In this document: piece after piece, positions 1 to 28,135 of the stretch | Layout: each line of letters begins with the position of its first letter | Position numbering within the stretch: the stretch's first letter is position 1 | From: Candidatus Saccharimonadota bacterium | GTDB lineage: Bacteria > Patescibacteriota > Gracilibacteria > Absconditabacterales > Absconditicoccaceae | DNA length: 32,000 nt | Direction: 5' to 3' | NCBI GenBank assembly: GCA_030429145.1 | Contig: JAUIDC010000001.1 | Location: 690,001-722,000 of the forward strand | Made by a program: the position numbers and the translations under genes | The notes under the pieces: model-generated | What the model was told of the DNA's origin: nothing | The model's database searches: none | The model's input: only the letters and a program-made list of their open reading frames with translations

Positions 1-1771
1 TTACCGATCCTGTTGTGTTCACGCTTCCTGTAGTAGCGTTGCTACCAGTAGATGTTGATGGATTGTTGTTCATGTATCCTGGTTGGAGAGGAATGATCTC
101 TTTGATAACATAGTATGGAGGAGTGCTTGGTCAAAGCGTATAGCTTGCTTTCCCGTCAGCAAATGGTCTGATAGTTCCTTCGATAACCGCGGTGTCATTG
201 ACCATGAAATTTGCAATACCCACTTTTCTCGTACCGTCGAGAGAGTAGATGTCTCCATACCAAACATATTGTTTGTCATAGTATTTATGTACAGTGTTCT
301 TTTCTATCTTATATGTAGTGCCAAAGACATCTATGAGGAAGTAGTCGTTGTTTTGGTCGAGAAGGTAGGTGTTCATAAGGATGTATCCTCTTGCCCAGTC
401 GCCAGTATTGACGATAAGGTTTTTATCGTTTCCTATCATGGTGATGAGTTGGTTTTTCATGATGTCACTATTTAGACTCTGTACAAGAGTGTTTTTCACT
501 CTGAGTCTGTACATAAGTGTCGCCATCTCATATCTCGTTACAGGTCTGTTAAAGTTCTCACTACTTGCTTCATTGATAAGTCCTAGTTCATTTGCTTTCG
601 TAAAGTAGTTTGACCATCGAGGTATGATGTTTTCATCTTGTGGTTGGTCGAACATCCTGAGAAGGACAGCAATAGCCTCAGCTCTTGAAAGAGATTTTGT
701 CGGAGCAAAATAACCATCACCTCACTTGAGGATATTGAGCTGACATGACTTTTTGATCCAGCCGCTGAGTGTCGCATCAGCATTGCCAATGTCGCTAAAT
801 GTACAACTATCTGGTGTTACAACCGTCTTGTTTGGAAACATAAGCTCTCTGTATTGTACAAGCATCTTTGCTGCTTGCTCTCTGGTGAGTACGTCAAATG
901 CACCAAATCCTGCTGCACCAGTAAACTTTGTTAACCCATTGTCATACATCCATCGAACAGCTTCTTTGAATTCGATGTCGTCAGTTGCGTTTGAGCCCTG
1001 TCCGATGAGATTGAGGACGCTGTTGTTGCTGCTACCAGTTGTTGACACCGAACCTGATGTGCCAATCTGTGACGCAGGCACTAGTGGTTCTACTGGCTCT
1101 CCGTCCGCATAGATCTTCTTAAATCTGTGGAGAATAAGCGCGAGCTCATATCTTGAAACAGGATTTCGGAAGTTTTCCATGTTGGTTTCTTTAGTCATAC
1201 CAAGCTGTTGAGCTTTGACGAAGTAGTTTGACCACCATGGTGTTACTGACTCGTTGAGCTGTCCATCGCTGAACATTCTAATGAGAGCAGCACTGAGCTC
1301 TGCTTTTGTGATAGTTCTGCCTGGAGCAAACAGTCCTTCTGACCCTTTGAAAATGCTGAACTGACAAGCGTCGAGAATATAGGGCTTCAGTGTTGGATCT
1401 GCATCTGTCGTGTCAGTAAACTGACAGTTGCTGATGTCTACTCTTGGAGGATTTTCCACATATGTTGTGAAGAACTGTGCGAGCATTTTTGCTGCCTGTT
1501 CTCTTGTCACCATATTAAATGGAGCATATGTCTCCTGTGTATTATATCTCGTGATTTGTGTGTTATACATCCATCCGAGTGCAGTGTCAAACTCGCTATC
1601 ATCTACAACAGTCTTTGTCTGTACTGTTCCAGATGTCGCCGTATATGTGTCTGCGATAGCGTTTTGTACGATATCTCCAATCGGAGCATTCACGTCATCT
1701 GCAAATACAGCACTACCTAAAACAAGTGCTGTTAATCCTGTAAATATACCAATTCTATAAAGAGATTTCAT
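1..1771 (-). CDS. Secreted surface protein with repeated SLH-like (S-layer homology) modules; C-terminus runs off the left edge
   Basis: The N-terminus MKSLYRIGIFTGLTALVLGSAVFADD looks like a signal peptide. Repeated modules fit the SLH pattern F-x-D...W/Y-I...G-I/F-x-K-G...F-x-P...T/S-R-A/E-E-x-A, e.g. FSDIGNADATLSGWIKKSCQLNILKGGDGYFAPTKSLSRAEAIAVLLRMF and FTDTTDADPTLKPYILDACQFSIFKGSEGLFAPGRTITKAELSAALIRMF. The track ORFs 722-1771 and 131-655 and the stretch 1-130 are in one frame, joined by TGA at 722-724 and 131-133. The tail at the window edge is Ser/Thr/Asn-rich. Confidence 0.65.
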
Positions 1772-1879
1772 GTCTCACCATGATAAAATAAAAATCAGTG
1801 TTAAAACTATACAATCCGTAGTGACTTGCAACAGTTTTGTACCATTTTTTTATGTTTTTATGATATAGTATACTAGGTC

Positions 1880-1907
1880 TTGAAACCTGAGAACCTATAT
1901 GTATACT
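1880..1907 (+). promoter_or_regulatory. Sigma-70-like promoter candidate upstream of hrcA
   Basis: TTGAAA (1880-1885), 16-nt spacer, TATACT (1902-1907), about 38 nt upstream of the hrcA ATG. Motif match by eye only. Confidence 0.4.
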
Positions 1908-1945
1908 GAGTACAAATATAAGGTTTATTCCATTTCGTTTTCTCT

Positions 1946-2632
1946 ATGGCTGAGGATAAACTGCTCAATCTTTTAGGTGTTGTCATCGACAACTATATCA
2001 ATAAGGGCGATCCAATTGGATCAAAGTTTTTGCATACGCTCGATACTTTAGAGTATGCACCTTCAACGCTCAGAAAATATCTCAATCTCTTAGAAAAAGA
2101 GGGTCTTGTCTATCAGCCCTATAATAGTTCTGGGCGTATCCCAACGGTGCAGGGACTGTCGCTGTATCTAGAAGATCATATGGGTGATAATGCAGAAGAG
2201 GTGATCGGGGAGCTCGCATTTGATGTGAACTACGCGCGTCAGGGTTTAAGATATATAGTGGAAACTCTCGGTAAAGTAGTTGATGGAGCAGTTGTAGGAT
2301 TTTTGAAAAATGATGAGTATTATTTTTTGGGGATTAATAATCTGCTACAAAATGCTCAGTTGACCGACATGGATACGACGAAATATATAGTACAATATAT
2401 TGAAGATAAGAAACTTGTATCAGCGTTAGACAGCAAACTCCTGAAAAAAGATAAAGTTTATTACACTTTTATAGAATCGGAAGAGTATATTATCTCGACG
2501 ATCTATGCGAAGATCAACGTTAATGGTTATGACGGAGTTGTGGCTATTCTTTGACCGACAAGGACAAACTACAAGCAAAATCTTGCTGTGCTAAAAAAAT
2601 TCCTTGCGAAGTTCAATGCGATGAATGGCTAA
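1946..2632 (+). CDS. hrcA: Heat-inducible transcription repressor HrcA (short form, 228 aa)
   Basis: The N-terminal winged-helix region LLNLLGVVIDNYINKGDPIGSKFL...STLRKYLNLLEKEGLVYQPYNSSGRIPTVQGLSLYL is collinear with the HrcA N-terminus. Reading TGA at 2552-2554 as Gly gives IL-G-PTRTNY, matching the conserved HrcA GPTRM(D/N)Y motif. Ends at TAA 2630-2632. Confidence 0.75.
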
Positions 2633-2662
2633 GAGTCTTTATTTGATAATCGGGATGTGACG

Positions 2663-3067
2663 ATGAATGAAAAGCTAGAAAGGGAGCATCATGACGATGA
2701 GTGACGTGAAGAGCTTGGCCGTCTGAAAGAGCAGCTAAACCAGCAAAACCATCTCGAAACATCTGATAATGATCCAGATAAAAAACAGCTTGATACAGTC
2801 TCTGCTAAAGAGGAGGAAGAAACGTCGGATAAACTCCGTGAATCTCAGGAGAATTTGGAGACCCTTACGACACGTAAAGAGATGTCGGATCTGCAAGCGG
2901 AGGTTGCGCAGCAGCCGACAGGGCAGAAACCGATTGATTATGAACAGATGAGTGAAGAAGAGATTGCTGATAGAGCGAATGTCGGGAGACAACAATCGGT
3001 GGATAGTGTACATAACATGGTCCAGTCTACTTCACGGATACCAGATATTATCAAAAAAAATGTCTAA
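2663..3067 (+). CDS. Hypothetical acidic, probably coiled-coil protein (~134 aa)
   Basis: The frame is open from the stop at 2630-2632. ATG at 2663 (GTG 2657 is an alternative start), one in-frame TGA at 2702-2704, and it ends at 3067. Glu/Asp/Gln-rich sequence with no recognisable motif. Confidence 0.45.
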
Positions 3068-3140
3068 CTTTATATTACCAATACACTGTTACTAGATGAA
3101 CGCAAATATTATACAAAGCGCATGAGGAATTGTCTACTAT

Positions 3141-3584
3141 ATGGCTGAAGATAAGAAGCCAAGATTTCTGCTTATCAAAAGACATGCGATGTCAGGGAAG
3201 ATAGAGTGGGTTGCGCCAAAGGGCAAGATGCAGAAAGGAGAGACGCCAGAGCAAGCAGCTGTAAGAGAGGTAAGCGAAGAGACCTCTTTGAAGACAGAAC
3301 ACCTGCTTGTTAGACAGAAAATAGGTTCGACAAGTCTGCGTAGTACAGAGACCCAAAAGGGTCGAATGGACAAGGATGTGACCTATTTTCTTATGTACTA
3401 TGACGGGTCGCCCGAAGCAGTTGAAATCCAGCCAGGCGAAGGATACTTAGGTATCCACAAGCGGGCGACCATCAACGAAGTGCTTGGGCTCATCTACTAT
3501 CAAAACATGAGAGAGCTGTTTATCGAAGCAGACAATGTGATTCGCTCACTTGCAGTGAAGGATAATTTCGTGAAAAATCTCTAA
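3141..3584 (+). CDS. Nudix hydrolase
   Basis: Nudix box GKMQKGETPEQAAVREVSEETSL fits Gx5Ex7REUxEExGU. Confidence 0.8.
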   Translation: MAEDKKPRFLLIKRHAMSGKIEWVAPKGKMQKGETPEQAAVREVSEETSLKTEHLLVRQKIGSTSLRSTETQKGRMDKDVTYFLMYYDGSPEAVEIQPGEGYLGIHKRATINEVLGLIYYQNMRELFIEADNVIRSLAVKDNFVKNL

Positions 3585-8997: not shown

Positions 8998-9025
8998 TTG
9001 ACTTATTCATTTAAATGTCTATAAT
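8998..9025 (+). promoter_or_regulatory. Near-consensus sigma-70-type promoter directly abutting the helicase start codon
   Basis: TTGACT (8998-9003), 16-nt spacer, TATAAT (9020-9025). The ATG at 9032 lies 7 nt after the -10 element, where transcription would be expected to start. Confidence 0.5.
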
Positions 9026-9031
9026 GCGTTT

Positions 9032-12000
9032 ATGAAAAATGCTATAAAAGCACCAGAGTTTGAAAAAAGGCCATATCAGTCAAAAGGGCGTGAAAGAATG
9101 AGGCGTTTCTTTTCCAAATGGATTAGACAAGAGTTAGAGGAAAAGCCAAATAAAGAATTGACTACAGCAATGCTGATTAATATGGCGACTTGATCGTGAA
9201 AGACTTTTACAGTTGGTAGTTTTTTGAATGATTTATATGAACTTAGAGAAAGATTCTATAAATTATATCCAAGTAAAGAATGGCTTACTATCAATGCATT
9301 AGTCTTTAATGATCGTATTAATCTTGTAAATCAATTGAGACAAGACTTTATTGAAGGTCGCAAAGCGAATAATAAGCCTCCTATTTTTAAACCAGAATTT
9401 ATCAAAAATATCGAAACTAAGACATATCACTCTAAGGCAGATGAACTTTTTGAGATCATGGATATGGATGAAGATCAGATTGAAGAGTACATGGAACAAG
9501 AACATGATGTTGGTAAAGTGACAGTTAAGACTTCCAATAAGAAGAGAAGAAATCAATATAAAGATTCTTTTAGTTTTGCTACTTTTCAAACTGCTCTAGA
9601 GTGACTCGACAATGTTGATCCATTTAATATTATCATTGTTGATGAGTGACATGTTTTGACGGGTTCAAAATATTTTGAGTCCTTTTTAAAGTACTATCAA
9701 CCTTTGCCGTCTGGTCACTATCCTTTAGTGATTGTGATGACAGCAACACCTACAAATAAGCTAAGGATCCTTACAGGTAAGGAAATCTTCAAGTATGGAC
9801 TTGCGGAATATATTATGAGTCCTAAATGTCCAAAGGTAAATTACAATATTGTAGGTATGAGTAAGCTCACTACTCAAGAGAAAATCGAAATATATAAGAC
9901 ACTTGATAGGATTAAGAACATAAGAGATGCAAGAGAGAAGAAAAGACAATTAAATGAGTTTGAAAAGTACCTACAGGAGGCACTGAGTAAGCATATTACT
10001 GTGAAGCAATTATGCTATGACTTTATGAATAGAGTAAAAAATAAAGATCATACGATTATATTTACTGCTTCTATTGATGAAGCAAATGAGGTTGTGAAAG
10101 AACTTAATAAGCAAGCTTGAGATGAAGAATTTGCGGTGGCATTACACTCGAAAGCTAAGAGGAAATGACAAGACATTATAGATGATTATAACAATGGGAA
10201 ACATAAGGTAATAGTAGCAGTAGATATGCTAAATCAGGGTATAGATATGCCTAAGACTAATAACATTGTATTCTGGCGTCATACTGATAGTGCGCTTATT
10301 TTCTTCCAGCAGCTTGGTAGAGGACTGAGAGGAGATGAAGTCAATATTTATGACTACATAGGTGGTATCAAAAACCTTGTATGGATTAATCAGGTTAATG
10401 ATGAAATAGACGACTTTGTAGAGATGAGACGTCAGAAATGAGAAGACATGGAAAAGAAAAAAATGGACATTTCAGTAAGTCATCTTACAACGAAACCAAT
10501 AGATAATACAAATGAGGAAGGTGGTTTTGATGCAGTTAAAATTGAGTATGTTGATGATGATGCTAAAGATGATGAAGAGCCCTATGAGATAAATCCCATG
10601 TTAAGTCTGCCGCCGATTGTAGATGAGGAGCTGGATCTTGATGATGAAGATCTATCTGAAGAAGATATGAATGAGGAGTCTGATGATGCGGACGACGATG
10701 TTGGTGTGTCCACACTTCCTGATTTTTCTAATGTCCCTGAAGAAAAAATGCCTGAACTGATTGAAAACTGGTTTAGTCTACAGGCAATTGTAGGTAATAT
10801 GAAGGAAATAGGTGAAGAAATTAAATTAACTAAAGAAGAAATAAAGACGGAATTTGATAAATTGGGAGGTTATAAAAAACTCATGCAGTACAGTCAAGAA
10901 CAAATTGCAAACATTGACATTAAGTGATACAAGATTCTTGCAATTTCAACCGCTTACTGATTTAGAAGTAAATATAATTCTTATAGACAAAGTCAAAGTT
11001 TCTTTCAGGAATTTATATCAAAAGTATATGAGAAAAAATTTCTCGGTACAAAAAAAAGTATCAAAGAAGAATTTGATAGATTATGAGGATATGATGCTTT
11101 AATGCAATATAGCTCAAGCCAAGTAAAACACTTAGAAATATCATGAAAGAAAATGAACGCTATTGCGGTTATATGTGGGTTTAGAAGTGAGTATGACCTT
11201 GATCCAAAAAACCTTGCAGGATTTCAAGAATTTCTTAGTTATATGTATTCAAAAGAATTTAATCCAGGTATAACAAAAGAACAAATCAAAGAGTATTTTG
11301 ATTTGCTAGGAGGTTATGAGTCGTTAAGTCAATATGCACAAACTGACATACCTTCAATAAAATTTGAATGAAAGATGCTTTGATGACTGGCTACCATATA
11401 TGGTTTTGTTTCAAGATATAATCTCAAAATTCATACTACTACAGGTCTTCTAGAGTTTCTATCCTTTATGTATGAGAAGGACTTTGAATATAAACCACTT
11501 GACCAGAAGATGATAAAAGAGGAATTAGATAGCCTATGAGGCTATAATGTTTTAATGAAATGGAAAACCCGTCAAATTAAGAAGTGGGAAATGTTTACAC
11601 ATAAAGTTAAATCTATATCTTTATCATATTGATTCGAAAGTAAATATTCGCTTAATATTGTTACTCCCATTGGGTTTCAAGAGTTCCTTAGTCATGTTTA
11701 TAATAAACCATTCATCATCAATGAGATAAAAGAAGATATTACAAAATCTCATATTAAGAAGCACTTTGATGACTTAGGCTGATATGAAGCACTTATTAGA
11801 TATACTCAGCCACAGATAACAGCACTTAGAATTGGCTGACATTGAGTGATACAGATAGCTAAAGTATATGGCTTTAAATCGAAATACTGAGCAAGCACTA
11901 AACTTACAAGATGATTTCAAGAATTTATATCAGCAATGTATTGACATGAGTTCCTCGGAACTAAAGAGGCTATTAGAAAGCAACTAGATGCATTATGATG

Positions 12001-13348
12001 ATATGATATTTTAATGAAATTTGGTACTCCTCAAATTAAGTGATTGGAAATTGGAGGAAATAAATTAGTCGCATTAGCCGGTATTTACTGATTTAAGTCC
12101 AAGCATAGTTTATCATTAAAGTCTGTAGATTGATTTCAAGAATTCATCTCTTTTATTTATCAAAAACCATTTTCGTATGAAATAATTACACCAGAAGGTA
12201 TCAAGAAAAGGTTTGATAATATGTGAGGATATGATCAATTGATGACATTTGATACTAATCAAATAAAAGATGTTGAAATTCAGAGGAATAAAATCATAGC
12301 TCTTGCTAATGTCTATGGATTTATTTCGAGCTATCAACTTGATATCACAACGATAAAAGGCTTTCAAGAATTCATTGCATTTGTCTACTGAAAAGAATTT
12401 ACTTATGAAGAAAAAACTAGTCTTACCAAGACAATAATTAAGCAAGAATTAGACAAATTAGGTGGCTATGATACGTTGATGAAATATAATCAAGTTGAGG
12501 TAACATCATTAAAGATCAATGGACATGCAATCACCTCTGTTGCTTCACAATATTGATTTAAAAGCGGGAGAGGTCTATTGTTGACTATAGTGAAGGGCTT
12601 TCAAGAATTTATCTCACATGTTTATTGAAAAGAGTTTAAATATGACTATCAAAAAAGACAGAAGCTGGATAAGATAATAATTAAAAAAGAATTAGACAAA
12701 TTGGGTGGTTATGAAAAACTAATAAAATACAATTCTTCCAATATTCGTAAAATAACCCTTAAAGGAAATAAAATACTATCAATTGCTAAATATTATAATT
12801 TCCAAAGTAATTACTCATTAGATGTATCCCTTCCCGCTGGCTTTCAAGAATTTATCTCACATGTTTATTGAAAAGAGTTTGCTTATGAGGAGAAATCCTC
12901 TCTTACCAAGACAATAATTAAGCAAGAATTAGATAAATTAGGCGGTTATGATGTTTTGATGAAATATACTTGATCTCAATTAAAAAAATTAGCCATTTAT
13001 AATAATAAAATTACTGCAATTGCAACTGCATTTGGTTTTAATAGTCAAAATAATTTGAACGTAGAGAGCATGAACTGATTTCAAGAATTTATCTCACATG
13101 TCTATTGAAAAGAATTCAGTAATTGAATTACAAAAGAGGAGATTAAGGCTTATCTAGATTCTCTTGGTTGATATGATACATTGCTGACATATACCTTAGA
13201 TCAAATTAAGTGAATTGAAGTTTCTGGGAAATGAGTTGTCGCACTTTCAAGTATATATGGGTTTAAGAGTGCTAGTAATACTCGTACAAGCAATGTAAGA
13301 GGTTTTCAAGAATTCATCTCATTTGTTTATGAAAAGCCTTATAAGTAA
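9032..13348 (+). CDS. SF2 (ResIII/DExH-type) helicase fused to an acidic linker and ~11.5 tandem 73-81-aa repeat modules; 1438 aa
   Basis: Hand-translated codon by codon in frame 2, with no TAA or TAG until 13346-13348. Helicase motifs are RPYQ (N-terminus), motif I MAT-G-S-G-KT (both Gly are TGA, 9191 and 9197), motif II IIIVDE-G-H (TGA 9647), motif III MTATP and motif VI QQLGRGLRG. An acidic segment follows (DDDAKDDEEP...DLDDEDLSEEDMNEESDDADDD), then the repeats. About 39 in-frame TGA codons. Confidence 0.85.
10751..13345 (+). repeat. In-frame tandem coding repeat, unit period 219-243 bp, ~11.5 units
   Basis: Unit consensus is (N/H)K(I/V)xx(I/L)AxxYGFxSxYxL-x5-6-GFQEF(I/L)SxVYxKEF-x6-14-IKxE(L/F)DxLGGY(D/E)xLMxYxxxQIxxLxIxG. 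Unit starts are at 10928, 11147, 11372, 11600, 11840, 12059, 12287, 12524, 12767, 13004 and 13229, and the last unit is truncated after GFQEFISFVYEKPYK. A partial unit precedes at 10751-10927. Confidence 0.85.
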
Positions 13349-21581: not shown

Positions 21582-22313
21582 TTATTCTGCTCCATTCACG
21601 TTTGAAGCTTTACGCTCGACTCTCTCTTTTCTTCTCGCTATCCTGTTGATTTTTTTTGCTTCGTCCCATAGGTTGTTCATTTGTAGAGCGCCTCTTATTT
21701 GGCTAGCTCGTCCTATAGCAGCTCTTTGCTCTCATCTGGTTGGGTTGTCGCCAAATCTATATTCTGCGTACTTAGATGCGAGGTTTCTCATGAAATTTGT
21801 ACCATTCAAGTCACCCTCTGATAAGAACTCTATGAGAATTTGTATCTCTCTATCGGGAAACTGTCTTAATTCAGGTATCTTGTTTATACGGTCGATGAGT
21901 TCTTGTTGTCTTTGGTCTAATTTGCTATAGTCTGTGTTCAAATTTTCATAGCGACTAGTATCTTTTTCTCCTGACTGTGGCCACACGCTAATATTCCCTC
22001 CTGTTGTATACACGGTCACATTGAAAAGCTTTTCATAGAGCTCTTTTGCACCCTTGTAAGGGTTTTCATTTTCTCACGGGCGTTTTGTTGGGCGAATATC
22101 TCGTTGAGCTTCGAGTGTCACGATATTGAAGAGATTGTTTTTAATAGCATCTCCGATCTGTGCTTCACTTTGTTTCAGGTAGTTCACTGCTTCCTCTTTC
22201 TTTTTAGGATTGCTCAATACCTCTTGAGCTTCTTTTATCTCATTTTTATCTATACCAATTTCAATGCCATCGGCGAGGTTGTCTATTTGTTGTATCTGGC
22301 CATCAATACTCAT
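21582..22313 (-). CDS. Hypothetical protein (243 aa)
   Basis: Track ORFs 22074-22313 and 21732-22019 and the stretch down to TAA (21582-21584 on the minus strand) are in one frame, joined by TGA at 22074 and 21732. No family recognised. Basic C-terminal tail. Confidence 0.5.
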
Positions 22314-22801: not shown

Positions 22802-22873
22802 GCCCTTGTAGTTCAACGGATAGAACAGGCCCGTCCTAAGGGTTAGATGTGGGTTCGATTCCTACCAAGGGTA
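22802..22873 (+). tRNA. tRNA-Arg (anticodon CCU)
   Basis: Hand-folded cloverleaf. Acceptor stem GCCCTTG/CAAGGGT (G1-U72). D arm GTTC-aacggata-GAAC. Anticodon arm GGCCC-gtCCTaa-GGGTT. 4-nt variable loop. T arm GTGGG-TTCGATT-CCTAC. Discriminator A, and no encoded CCA. Confidence 0.8.
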
Positions 22874-26074: not shown

Positions 26075-28135
26075 ATGCAGCTTCAACATAGTGCTTTGAC
26101 ATATGGACCGGAACACTCACATGTTGCTATCCATAAAGAGGTAGGTAGCAACATTACTGTCCATGCTGATATCGTATTGCTCTCTGACAAATTTCTCGAA
26201 TATCAGAGGACCATACTTGACGAGTTTTTCGCGCAGCTTTTTGACCTTACTTATAGCGAGGATGTGCTCTTCGATGAGATCATCGATGGGTTTGAGATGC
26301 TTTTGCAGTCTCTCAATACCAAGTTAGAAACTTTCGCAAGCAAGATTACTGATGCGCCATTTTTTGATATCCGTGGAGCGATTCAGCTATTCCACCATCA
26401 AGATTATATTGCGTCGCTTATTGGTGATGTAACCCTTCTTGTTGCAAGAGAAGGCAAGATGCAATATACGCTTCATAACGATGTGATGACTAATCGTCCG
26501 ATAGCATTGTTTTCTGACTTTATCCAAGGTGATATCTATGCTGGTGATCAGATTTTCATCCTTGGTGGTGATACTACGCAGTATTTTGATCAGTATGAGC
26601 TTCAGGAGTTTGTTGACAGTCTAGACAACCAAGAAGATGTCGCATCGTACACACGCGACATGTTGAAGCAGAGATGTCCAGTAGAGGAGCTTGGTATCGT
26701 TTCTCACTATGGTCTGACACTTGCAAAGCCAAAGAGCGTTGCTACAAAGGCAGGAGGAAACTTGAAAAAGGTCATAGCATGAGTTGGTGCTGGTAAGATC
26801 TTTTCGAAGCTCAATATCCACATGGGTGATAGATGGATTATCTTTACGAGAAATGTGCGTGAGATGATGTCGCAGTATAGATACGCGATAGTGATAGGTT
26901 TGTTTAGTATTTTTTTATTGTACCTGCTCTATGGACTAGTAGCAAACTTCATCAGAAACAATACTACCAATACTATCAATTCTGATGGTACAGTAACGGC
27001 AAATCTCTCTATTGAGGATATCAAAAAGGAGCTTGTTAACTTCCAGAAACTTGATCCATCAACGGAGGAAAAGGTTATCAAATATAATGCACTCAAAGAC
27101 CAGCTTGATGCTCTAGAAAGGGAAGGAAAGCGAAAAAATGATGTTGCTCAACTCAAGACTATTCTCAATACCGAGTATTATAGAGGGTTTAATATCGTTC
27201 TCGTTGACAATCTCGTAGAGCAAAATGTCTATACATTCTCAAGTTTGGAGAAGAGCACAATGGGTATCCCTCTCAATATTTTCTATAACAGATCGTTCTA
27301 CGTTGCAGGTGATAAGGGAGCAGTGCTAGCAGGTATTAGCGATGATGTAAGAGGGAATAATATCACATATTCGCTTGGTCTCACCGCAGAGTCTTGTTCG
27401 TTGAATCTCCTTGGAGACGGTATTTACTGTGCCTCTACGGATAATAGAATCTTCAACACGACAAAAGCTGGTAGTGAGGATGTAAAGATTGAAGGAGGAA
27501 ATTTCCCTGAAGGGATTATTGGTCTTGGGACTTTTGGAAGCTCTAACTTCTACGCACTCCTTAAAAATAGTAGTTTAGCAGCCGATGGTATCTATGTTGC
27601 AAAGTATAGTAATCTATTGGGGTCTCAGACAGCATTTACGCCAGGGGTCTTCTTAGAGCTCAATGATACGTCTCTTCCAGAACAGATCCCAAATGGTTTC
27701 TCTGCTATGACTATTGATGGTACATTCCTTTTGTGGTCTCCAGACAACAAGGGCCTCTACCAGATGTATAGAAACTCAGCATGACAGCCCCTCAATCGAC
27801 GTCCTATTAGCCTCAATGGTGGAACAAACATCGGTGACGGCTACAGTGAAAACGTAAAACCTATCTCGTTTATAAATAGTAAATATGTGTACCTTTTTGA
27901 TAAAGTAAATCAGACATTTACCGTCTATACGAGTAGTCCTCTCAAAACAAACACGGCGTATACCGCTGGTTACTCACTTAACTATGTGATGAGAATTAAC
28001 TTTAGTGTGCCGAATAATACTATTATTGATGCTACCGTTGATGAGAGCGATGGGAAACAGACATTGTATATACTACACAATGAGGGTGTAGCGAAGATTG
28101 TGCTCACTGACTATATGCAAAACATGACACAATAG
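26075..28135 (+). CDS. Hypothetical single-pass membrane protein (~686 aa): ~250-aa cytoplasmic N-domain, one TM helix, ~430-aa external domain
   Basis: Track ORFs 26063-26782, 26822-27784 and 27887-28135 are co-framed through TGA at 26780 and 27782. The hydrophobic helix is YAIVIGLFSIFLLYLLYGLVANF. Start at ATG 26075 (TTG 26063 is an alternative). No family recognised. Confidence 0.6.

Follow-up and report, generated by a model that had tools for sequence, protein, structure and literature searches.

The subject of this analysis is one long gene in a 32,000-nucleotide stretch of DNA, referred to below as the window, from a bacterium deposited as Candidatus Saccharimonadota and placed by GTDB in the Absconditicoccaceae of the Gracilibacteria (assembly GCA_030429145.1, contig JAUIDC010000001.1, positions 690,001 to 722,000). 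The gene, found at 9032-13348 of the window, is a single frame of 1,438 sense codons on the forward strand, 39 of which are TGA, with no TAA or TAG before the TAA stop at 13346-13348. Its product consists of a superfamily 2 (SF2) helicase core, an acidic linker and eleven tandem copies of a small module. This module appears to represent a new, lineage-restricted domain family; the helicase superfamily and the motor-plus-array plan are already known. An earlier inspection of the same letters, made without database searches and called here the sequence-only reading, had described one 1438-codon frame under code 25 and judged it very unlikely to be due to chance. This was borne out, as the probability of an open frame of such length, calculated from the gene's own base composition (A 38%, T 30%), is about 6e-43. 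The features of the locus are collected in Table 1.

Table 1. Position of the helicase-array gene, its parts and selected neighbouring features in the window
Feature	Residues	Position	Strand	Remarks
beta-CASP metallo-beta-lactamase nuclease	623 aa	6989-8860	-	Lactamase_B aa 37-131, Beta-Casp 408-526, RMMBL 546-594
Candidate promoter TTGACT-16 nt-TATAAT, sigma-70-like		8998..9025	+	consensus scan, 11/12 positions match
Helicase-array coding sequence	1,438 aa	9032..13348	+	code 25, 39 TGA = Gly
SF2 helicase/translocase core	10-459	9059..10408	+	Pfam, PHROG_16, orthologue core
ResIII (PF04851)	10-241	9059-9754	+	Pfam 55.5 bits, cut-off 22.5
RPYQ motif	13-16	9068..9079	+
Motif I/Walker A GSGKT	54-58	9191..9205	+	both glycines TGA
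Motif II DEGH	204-207	9641..9652	+	glycine TGA
Motif III TATP	237-240	9740..9751	+
Helicase_C (PF00271)	330-433	10019-10330	+	Pfam 45 bits, cut-off 23.5
Motif VI QQLGRGLR	426-433	10307..10330	+
Acidic linker	471-598	10442..10825	+	net charge -34, pI 4.05
Module unit 1	599-671	10826..11044	+
Module unit 2	672-746	11045..11269	+
Module unit 3	747-822	11270..11497	+	GFQEF block is GLLEF
Module unit 4	823-902	11498..11737	+
Module unit 5	903-975	11738..11956	+
Module unit 6	976-1051	11957..12184	+
Module unit 7	1052-1130	12185..12421	+	in three-unit model
Module unit 8	1131-1211	12422..12664	+	in three-unit model
Module unit 9	1212-1290	12665..12901	+	in both AlphaFold models
Module unit 10	1291-1365	12902..13126	+
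Module unit 11	1366-1438	13127..13345	+	protein C-terminus directly after GFQEFISFVYEKPYK helix
tRNA-Arg (CCT)		22802-22873	+

The genetic code of the locus can be read from the gene itself. None of the long genes of the window stays open unless TGA is taken as a sense codon. In the helicase-array gene, the two glycines of GSGKT (Walker A) and the one in DEGH are all written as TGA. Moreover, in five glycine-conserved columns of the repeats, the units that do not use TGA have glycine in 32 of 36 cases and tryptophan in none. Since TGA is used for the Walker A and DEGH glycines and interchanges with GGN at glycines that are invariant among the repeats, it encodes glycine here and not tryptophan, corresponding to code 25 of the Gracilibacteria type; translation with table 25 had been proposed by the sequence-only reading as a check. 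A tRNA-Gly(UCA) gene was not found within the window, where a tRNA-Arg gene was the sole RNA gene detected. The same protein is present in a public collection (P0001) as a code-4 translation, with tryptophan at TGA.

Judged from its sequence, the motor is a ResIII/DExH ATPase of SF2, and double-stranded DNA is the substrate of the characterised proteins closest to it. The motifs RPYQ, GSGKT, DEGH, TATP and QQLGRGLR occur once each, the catalytic motifs I, II, III and VI are intact, and both Pfam domains exceed their cut-offs, which agrees with the complete motif set that had been recognised earlier; TATP is present as described, and only its position had to be corrected to residues 237-240. 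The profile PHROG_16, annotated as 'DNA helicase', matches residues 8-500 at 2.8e-35. Other best profile matches of the core are HsdR, RadD, EcoAI, Hef, PbeA and a type IV restriction enzyme. Among PDB sequences, the core matches Hef, XPB, HsdR, RadD and 7clg, a 'putative helicase' that we take to be SauUSI.

Although HsdR, type IV motors and Mrr_cat-helicase fusions provide the best sequence matches of the core, the protein differs from them in having no nuclease domain and no partner genes, whether HsdM, HsdS or others. Pfam and NCBIfam scans of residues 1-598 and of the array revealed no nuclease, and the same library does detect Mrr_cat in relatives. The NCBIfam scores of the core are 60.2 bits for HsdR and 52 for EcoAI, against cut-offs of 729 and 550, respectively. 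A type I or type IV restriction enzyme, or an Mrr-helicase fusion, was rejected on these grounds, namely the missing nuclease, equivalog scores far under the cut-offs and the absence of methylase or specificity genes nearby.

The core is followed by the poly-acidic segment that the sequence-only reading had noticed. The charge is densest at residues 495-575 (nucleotides 10514-10756), and the linker of about 130 residues is probably disordered. It is missing from the syntenic orthologue in a related metagenome-assembled genome (MAG), L035.

The array occupies residues 599-1438 and contains 11 LGGY-anchored units with a period of 73-81 residues. Its net charge is +24 and its isoelectric point (pI) is 9.2. 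The head-to-tail organisation and the conserved GFQEF, LGGY and YGFxS blocks were found as first described. The earlier count of about 11.5 copies was not sustained, as the unit hidden Markov model (HMM) found no part-unit in residues 521-600, even with all filters off, and the extra half copy before unit 1 was thus rejected. Pairwise, the units have 33-59% amino acid identity (mean 45%) and 45-67% DNA identity. Across all arrays examined, the variable positions cluster in the loop that links YGFxS to GFQEF, near helices H2-H3 of the predicted fold and beside its hairpin. Given the clustering in the YGFxS-GFQEF loop, the units may not be interchangeable.

Long repeat arrays are prone to mis-assembly, and units 8-10 have exact words of 23-30 nucleotides in common, which raises the question of whether the array arose in assembly, whether the gene is a pseudogene in decay, or whether translation ends at the first TGA. 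Such explanations are hardly credible here. With 45-67% DNA identity between units and no DNA-level array reported by Tandem Repeats Finder, reads map uniquely. Between-unit identity at codon positions 1, 2 and 3 is 52.5, 65.9 and 43.1%, and invariant residues are written with several synonymous codons (five each for S48 and L19), a pattern of purifying selection. The first TGA codons fall within Walker A, which speaks against translation ending there, and the fusion of helicase and array also occurs on independent contigs from other samples. Given the DNA divergence of the units and this codon pattern, the array is old and kept by protein-level purifying selection, and it is not a collapsed or inflated assembly.

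The structure of the module was predicted with AlphaFold, using alignments built first from the internal repeats and then from family members. The targets were code-4 translations, so that the modelled sequences carry 2-5 tryptophans in place of glycine; the large profile search described below used the same translation. A model of units 7-9, in keeping with an earlier proposal to predict the structure of two or three units, reached a mean predicted local distance difference test score (pLDDT) of 92.6, with a predicted template-modelling score (pTM) of 0.44 and pLDDT of 65-69 in the linkers. In the other model, comprising unit 9 flanked by GFQEF helices, the C-terminal GFQEF helix forms part of the domain (pLDDT ~90), and the helix preceding unit 9 is undocked together with its linker (pLDDT 41-54). 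The domain is thereby predicted to extend from (L/I)TK to YGKEF, over about 65 residues. All three modelled units have the predicted topology H1-H2-H3-beta hairpin-H4-long loop-H5. The helices expected by the sequence-only reading are therefore present in the models, but each module also contains a beta-hairpin and is not purely helical. Since pLDDT is high within the units but pTM is 0.44 and linker pLDDT is 65-69, the array is modelled as confidently folded beads on flexible linkers, without fixed mutual orientation.

An exhaustive search with a unit profile among 1.84 billion protein representatives returned 42 proteins at E<=1e-3, with E-values down to 1e-110. Two evident false positives, which are eukaryote-like leucine-rich-repeat and zinc-finger proteins, reduce this to about 40 relatives. 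Most relatives are rich in tryptophan at expected glycine sites (56 occurrences of WFQEF against 24 of GFQEF), and others are short pieces cut at TGA; for instance, P0039 and P0042 both come from the L035 gene. The fragments P0015, P0020, P0021, P0033 and P0037 have no TGA-recoding signature. On the evidence of tryptophan at glycine sites or truncation at TGA, most relatives come from TGA-recoded genomes translated with the wrong table. Public translations with code 4 or code 11 therefore defeat word-based homology searches, and a word-indexed search with the array and with a 55-unit alignment retrieved only the protein itself and one fragment. Wrong-table translation probably hides many Gracilibacteria-specific families.

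The search of other genomes with unit HMMs, which had been suggested at the outset, thus yielded relatives together with further loci (L033, L035, L062, L064, L066, L076 and L079). A DNA pattern scan of a genome collection gave 57 loci, of which 55 were chance matches and two, L033 and L035, were real. The named sources of the module are Candidatus Gracilibacteria and MAGs of the 'Patescibacteria group'. No real viral match was found in IMG/VR by pattern or back-translated motifs, nor among GenBank phages by tblastn, searches that could miss phages in which TGA encodes glycine. A full-text literature search on Gracilibacteria, helicase and tandem repeat returned nothing relevant. Module copies elsewhere number 1-7 and are at least partly tandem, and the 11 copies of the window protein form the longest array seen.

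Four fusion partners of the module can be distinguished, and three of them are SF2 ATPases. The first is the helicase type found here (P0022, P0031, P0045, P0046, L035 and L076). A second ResIII helicase type occurs in P0007, P0009, P0014 and L033. The third partner is an SNF2-related ATPase, in which six units lie N-terminally in a protein of 1,889 residues (L062/L058). The fourth is an uncharacterised N-terminal domain of about 290 residues, with the core motif R(K/Q)xSY...KT(L/I)L(I/L)N(N/D)(Q/E)YG(E/Q)G.F, present in P0002, P0004, P0008, P0012, P0016, P0018, P0043 and L066 (at 1509-3293 on the reverse strand of L066). The SNF2-related protein, encoded at 451-6120 of L062 on the reverse strand and at 2-4402 of L058 on the forward strand, comes from contigs of about 22% guanine-cytosine (GC) content and has a long C-terminal region. 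By eye, this region ends in a possible PD-(D/E)xK-like motif, GTDF...LLDLKT, without a Pfam match.

More distant relatives of the core carry six INT_rpt copies, two or three HNH_repeat copies, two zinc ribbons, helix-turn-helix (HTH) domains or an Mrr nuclease in the equivalent position. By this comparison, the module occupies the site at which the helicase lineage habitually carries targeting or DNA-handling accessories. The initial remark that the architecture recalls helicases with multiple copies of the helicase-associated (HA) domain was therefore apt, given the INT_rpt, HNH_repeat and zinc-ribbon arrays of these relatives.

The helicases with INT_rpt (PF14882) or HNH_repeat (PF18780) follow the same plan, in which an SF2 motor precedes small head-to-tail modules. 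Among ResIII/SWI2_SNF2-type examples, P0063 has six INT_rpt copies and P0071 and P0108 have two or three of HNH_repeat, and their cores are related to that of the window protein at E-values of 1e-11 to 1e-15, with about 26-31% identity. In contrast, their units are 54-55 residues long and recognised by Pfam, whereas the module has a period of 73-81 residues and a beta-hairpin and matches neither model. Membership of these families was rejected, since there was no Pfam match and hhalign gave probabilities of 0.3% (P0063) and 0.1% (P0071/P0108) with shallow comparison alignments.

The HA domain (PF03457) is likewise about 65-70 residues long and occurs in several copies on helicases, and DNA binding has been reported for it (Mills et al. 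2013, as cited in PMC12191111). The module is not a member of this family by any search made: PF03457 was not matched at E<=1 by the 840-residue array or a two-unit piece, nor at E<=10 by any of 30 single units. At the fold level, the module had no Foldseek match to any PDB chain, in a library that is assumed from the title of the reference to contain the nuclear magnetic resonance structure of HA. The earlier impression that the motifs differ from those of HA was thus confirmed.

Another parallel is topoisomerase V of Methanopyrus kandleri, in which 12 tandem (HhH)2 domains follow the catalytic domain and contact DNA (PMC9489208, PMC4838376). It likewise joins a DNA enzyme to an 11-12-copy array of small, independently folded domains, and differs in that the catalytic partner is a topoisomerase and not a helicase. 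By eye, the segment QIKxLEIxGxKIxAIA of the module recalls a helix-hairpin-helix. This identity was rejected after searches that gave no Pfam HHH match, with a library that detects HHH in the Nth protein of the window, and no Foldseek match.

Taken together, these observations suggest that the protein is a DNA translocase whose tail is a new, multivalent binder of nucleic acid, a tentative reading to which we give a little less than even confidence. An ATP-driven SF2 motor would be joined through the acidic linker to eleven independently folded modules, and the basic array would act as a multivalent tether for nucleic acid, most likely DNA. Many weak contacts could together keep the motor on its substrate or direct it there, in a way akin to the (HhH)2 array of topoisomerase V or to the role presumed for the HA, INT_rpt and HNH_repeat arrays of related helicases. 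As for the acidic linker, it might be a simple spacer, or it might bend back onto the basic array and so act as an autoinhibitor or intramolecular competitor. The tether role is suggested because the array is basic, its beads are flexibly linked, three kinds of SF2 ATPase, including an SNF2 type, carry the module, and HA domains and topoisomerase V offer precedents. We infer the nature of the ligand as nucleic acid, its identity as DNA and the role of the linker. The suggestion of a modular nucleic-acid or protein-binding scaffold, made from the letters alone, keeps its tentative standing and is now better grounded by the fusions, the basic array and the beads-on-string model.

Several observations weigh against a nucleic-acid-binding tail, foremost the lack of any link between the module and a nucleic-acid-binding fold. 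The array had no Pfam or NCBIfam match at E<=1, and neither PADLOC, PHROGs nor profile searches of PDB sequences gave a match to the module. Among 30 glycine-corrected single units compared with Pfam at E<=10, no family was matched by more than one unit. Foldseek found no match to the PDB at E<=10 for a single unit and a best E-value of 4.4, with a template-modelling (TM) score below 0.2, for three units; BFVD gave no match either. An AraC-type HTH (HTH_18, PF12833) reached 16.9 bits against a cut-off of 33.6, and no single unit matched it. A MarA-like lead obtained with an 11-unit profile (E-values of 0.9 and 0.008, with MarA at 0.9) was gone with a 30-unit profile. Within the array itself, the 11 units include three that are neutral or acidic, and the invariant polar residues include the acidic D11 and E62, which is atypical of a DNA-contact surface. 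The N-terminal domain of about 290 residues (class B) has no Pfam or PDB-sequence match and brings no functional information. These scans are also those that the sequence-only reading had recommended for core and units: the core was assigned to ResIII and Helicase_C, the module matched nothing in Pfam, NCBIfam, PHROGs, PADLOC, the PDB or Foldseek, and the module, which that reading could not assign to a family, had no confident match to a known one.

Fast evolution and variable copy number form a further point of this kind, because they also fit a role in protein recognition. The related MAG L035 keeps the order beta-CASP nuclease, helicase and LepA, and identity with the window proteins is 85% for LepA, 40% for the helicase core and about 42% for the units. 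The orthologue has four units, and the units of the window protein have diverged from each other (mean 45%) about as much as from those of the orthologue (42%). In L076 and L079, on the other hand, units within one protein are 66-71% alike. Other family members lie in unrelated contexts, near SmpB and pilins, EF-G, or FtsZ and FtsA. Because synteny is kept in L035 but core identity is low, and contexts elsewhere are unrelated, the gene is, as far as sequence comparison tells, a chromosomal, stand-alone gene that is vertically retained over short distances and fast-evolving in sequence and copy number.

The composition of the gene is equally distinctive. TGA accounts for 38% of its glycine codons, compared with 12% in 25 neighbouring genes (Fisher p = 1.5e-9), and its GC content is 31.6%, compared with about 40% for the whole window. 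In both the window genome and the L035 genome, this value contrasts with 42-44% in the flanks, and the L035 orthologue has 24 TGA in 809 codons together with the same GC dip. Possible causes of the low GC content and high TGA use are drift towards AT accompanying fast evolution, a low level of expression, and import from a foreign genome that also uses code 25.

These features bear on a rather unlikely alternative, in which the array is a recognition or sensor surface for proteins of phage, prey or host, or for complex assembly, and the helicase serves as the effector or remodeller of a conflict system, be it for defence or for offence. The divergence of the core beside a conserved LepA, the change from 11 to four copies between orthologues, the GC dip in both genomes and the concentration of variation in one loop would all fit it. 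In addition, the core shows similarity to helicases of defence systems, among them PbeA, restriction enzymes of types I and IV, and Mrr fusions. However, neither a nuclease nor another effector domain is present in the protein, PADLOC gave no match to the module, and in four genomic contexts the neighbours are housekeeping genes, with no defence island, mobile-element genes or conserved partner. The fused partners are DNA motors, which points to a substrate of the motor and not to a protein sensor.

A third possibility, which we consider improbable, is that of an RNA helicase with an RNA-binding array, acting with the divergent beta-CASP nuclease to process or degrade RNA. Some DExH motors are RNA helicases, the nuclease has a match to the RNA-specificity domain RMMBL, and genes for an S1 protein and RNase Y lie within the window. 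The gene order kept in L035 also leaves a functional link between nuclease and helicase possible. Nevertheless, this synteny connects only two close relatives, as their LepA identity indicates, and the unrelated contexts of other family members do not repeat it. The profiles that best match the core belong to DNA enzymes, and the module is also fused to an SNF2-related ATPase, a member of a family of double-stranded-DNA translocases.

A bolder reading can be formulated, and it is a long shot. The module would be a new fold that reads nucleic acid unit by unit, each bead recognising a short stretch of DNA or RNA through the hypervariable YGFxS-GFQEF loop, so that 1-11 beads would spell a target address for different motors (two ResIII types and SNF2) and for an uncharacterised enzyme. 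It would be the equivalent, specific to Gracilibacteria, of TALE, PUF or zinc-finger arrays, and its fast evolution would reflect targets in foreign or prey DNA. TALE, PUF and zinc-finger arrays similarly present a tandem conserved scaffold with variation at few positions. Unlike them, however, the module forms beads on flexible linkers with no continuous solenoid, has no sequence or fold relation to them, and varies over a loop and several positions rather than at one or two residues.

At present, the module appears to be a clearly delimited new domain family, and the hypothesis attached to it is explicit. If the tether reading is true, TGA-recoded bacteria of the candidate phyla would have evolved an accessory domain of their own with which to steer DNA motors, one that is invisible to curated libraries, partly through public translations that place tryptophan at TGA or are broken there. 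It would also add a new small fold to the nucleic-acid-binding modules and provide a handle on fast-evolving, possibly conflict-related genes of organisms not yet culturable alone. Should the units prove individually specific, they could provide a new scaffold on which to engineer recognition of DNA or RNA.

Regarding expression, the -10 box of the candidate promoter ends 6 nucleotides upstream of the ATG at 9032, and no Shine-Dalgarno sequence was seen by eye in 8998-9031. Because the -10 box lies so close to the ATG, the transcript may be leaderless or near-leaderless.

The remaining genes of the window are varied. In order, it begins with genes for an S-layer homology (SLH) protein, HrcA, a NUDIX protein, cysteinyl-tRNA synthetase, a pilin and the divergently oriented beta-CASP nuclease. 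The helicase-array gene follows, and after it come LepA, a PLD-family protein, methionyl-tRNA synthetase, Dtd, a 5'-3' exonuclease, Nth, S1, RNase Y and others. Two predicted proteins, of 243 residues (21582-22313, reverse strand) and 686 residues (26075-28135, forward strand), have no Pfam match at E<=1e-4, and the latter shows a central transmembrane-looking segment. The beta-CASP nuclease contains a charged stretch of about 270 residues between Lactamase_B and Beta-Casp. At the edge of the window (2-1771, reverse strand), the SLH-repeat protein of 590 residues looks secreted and consists of two similar halves of about 200 residues, with spacers rich in serine, threonine and glycine.

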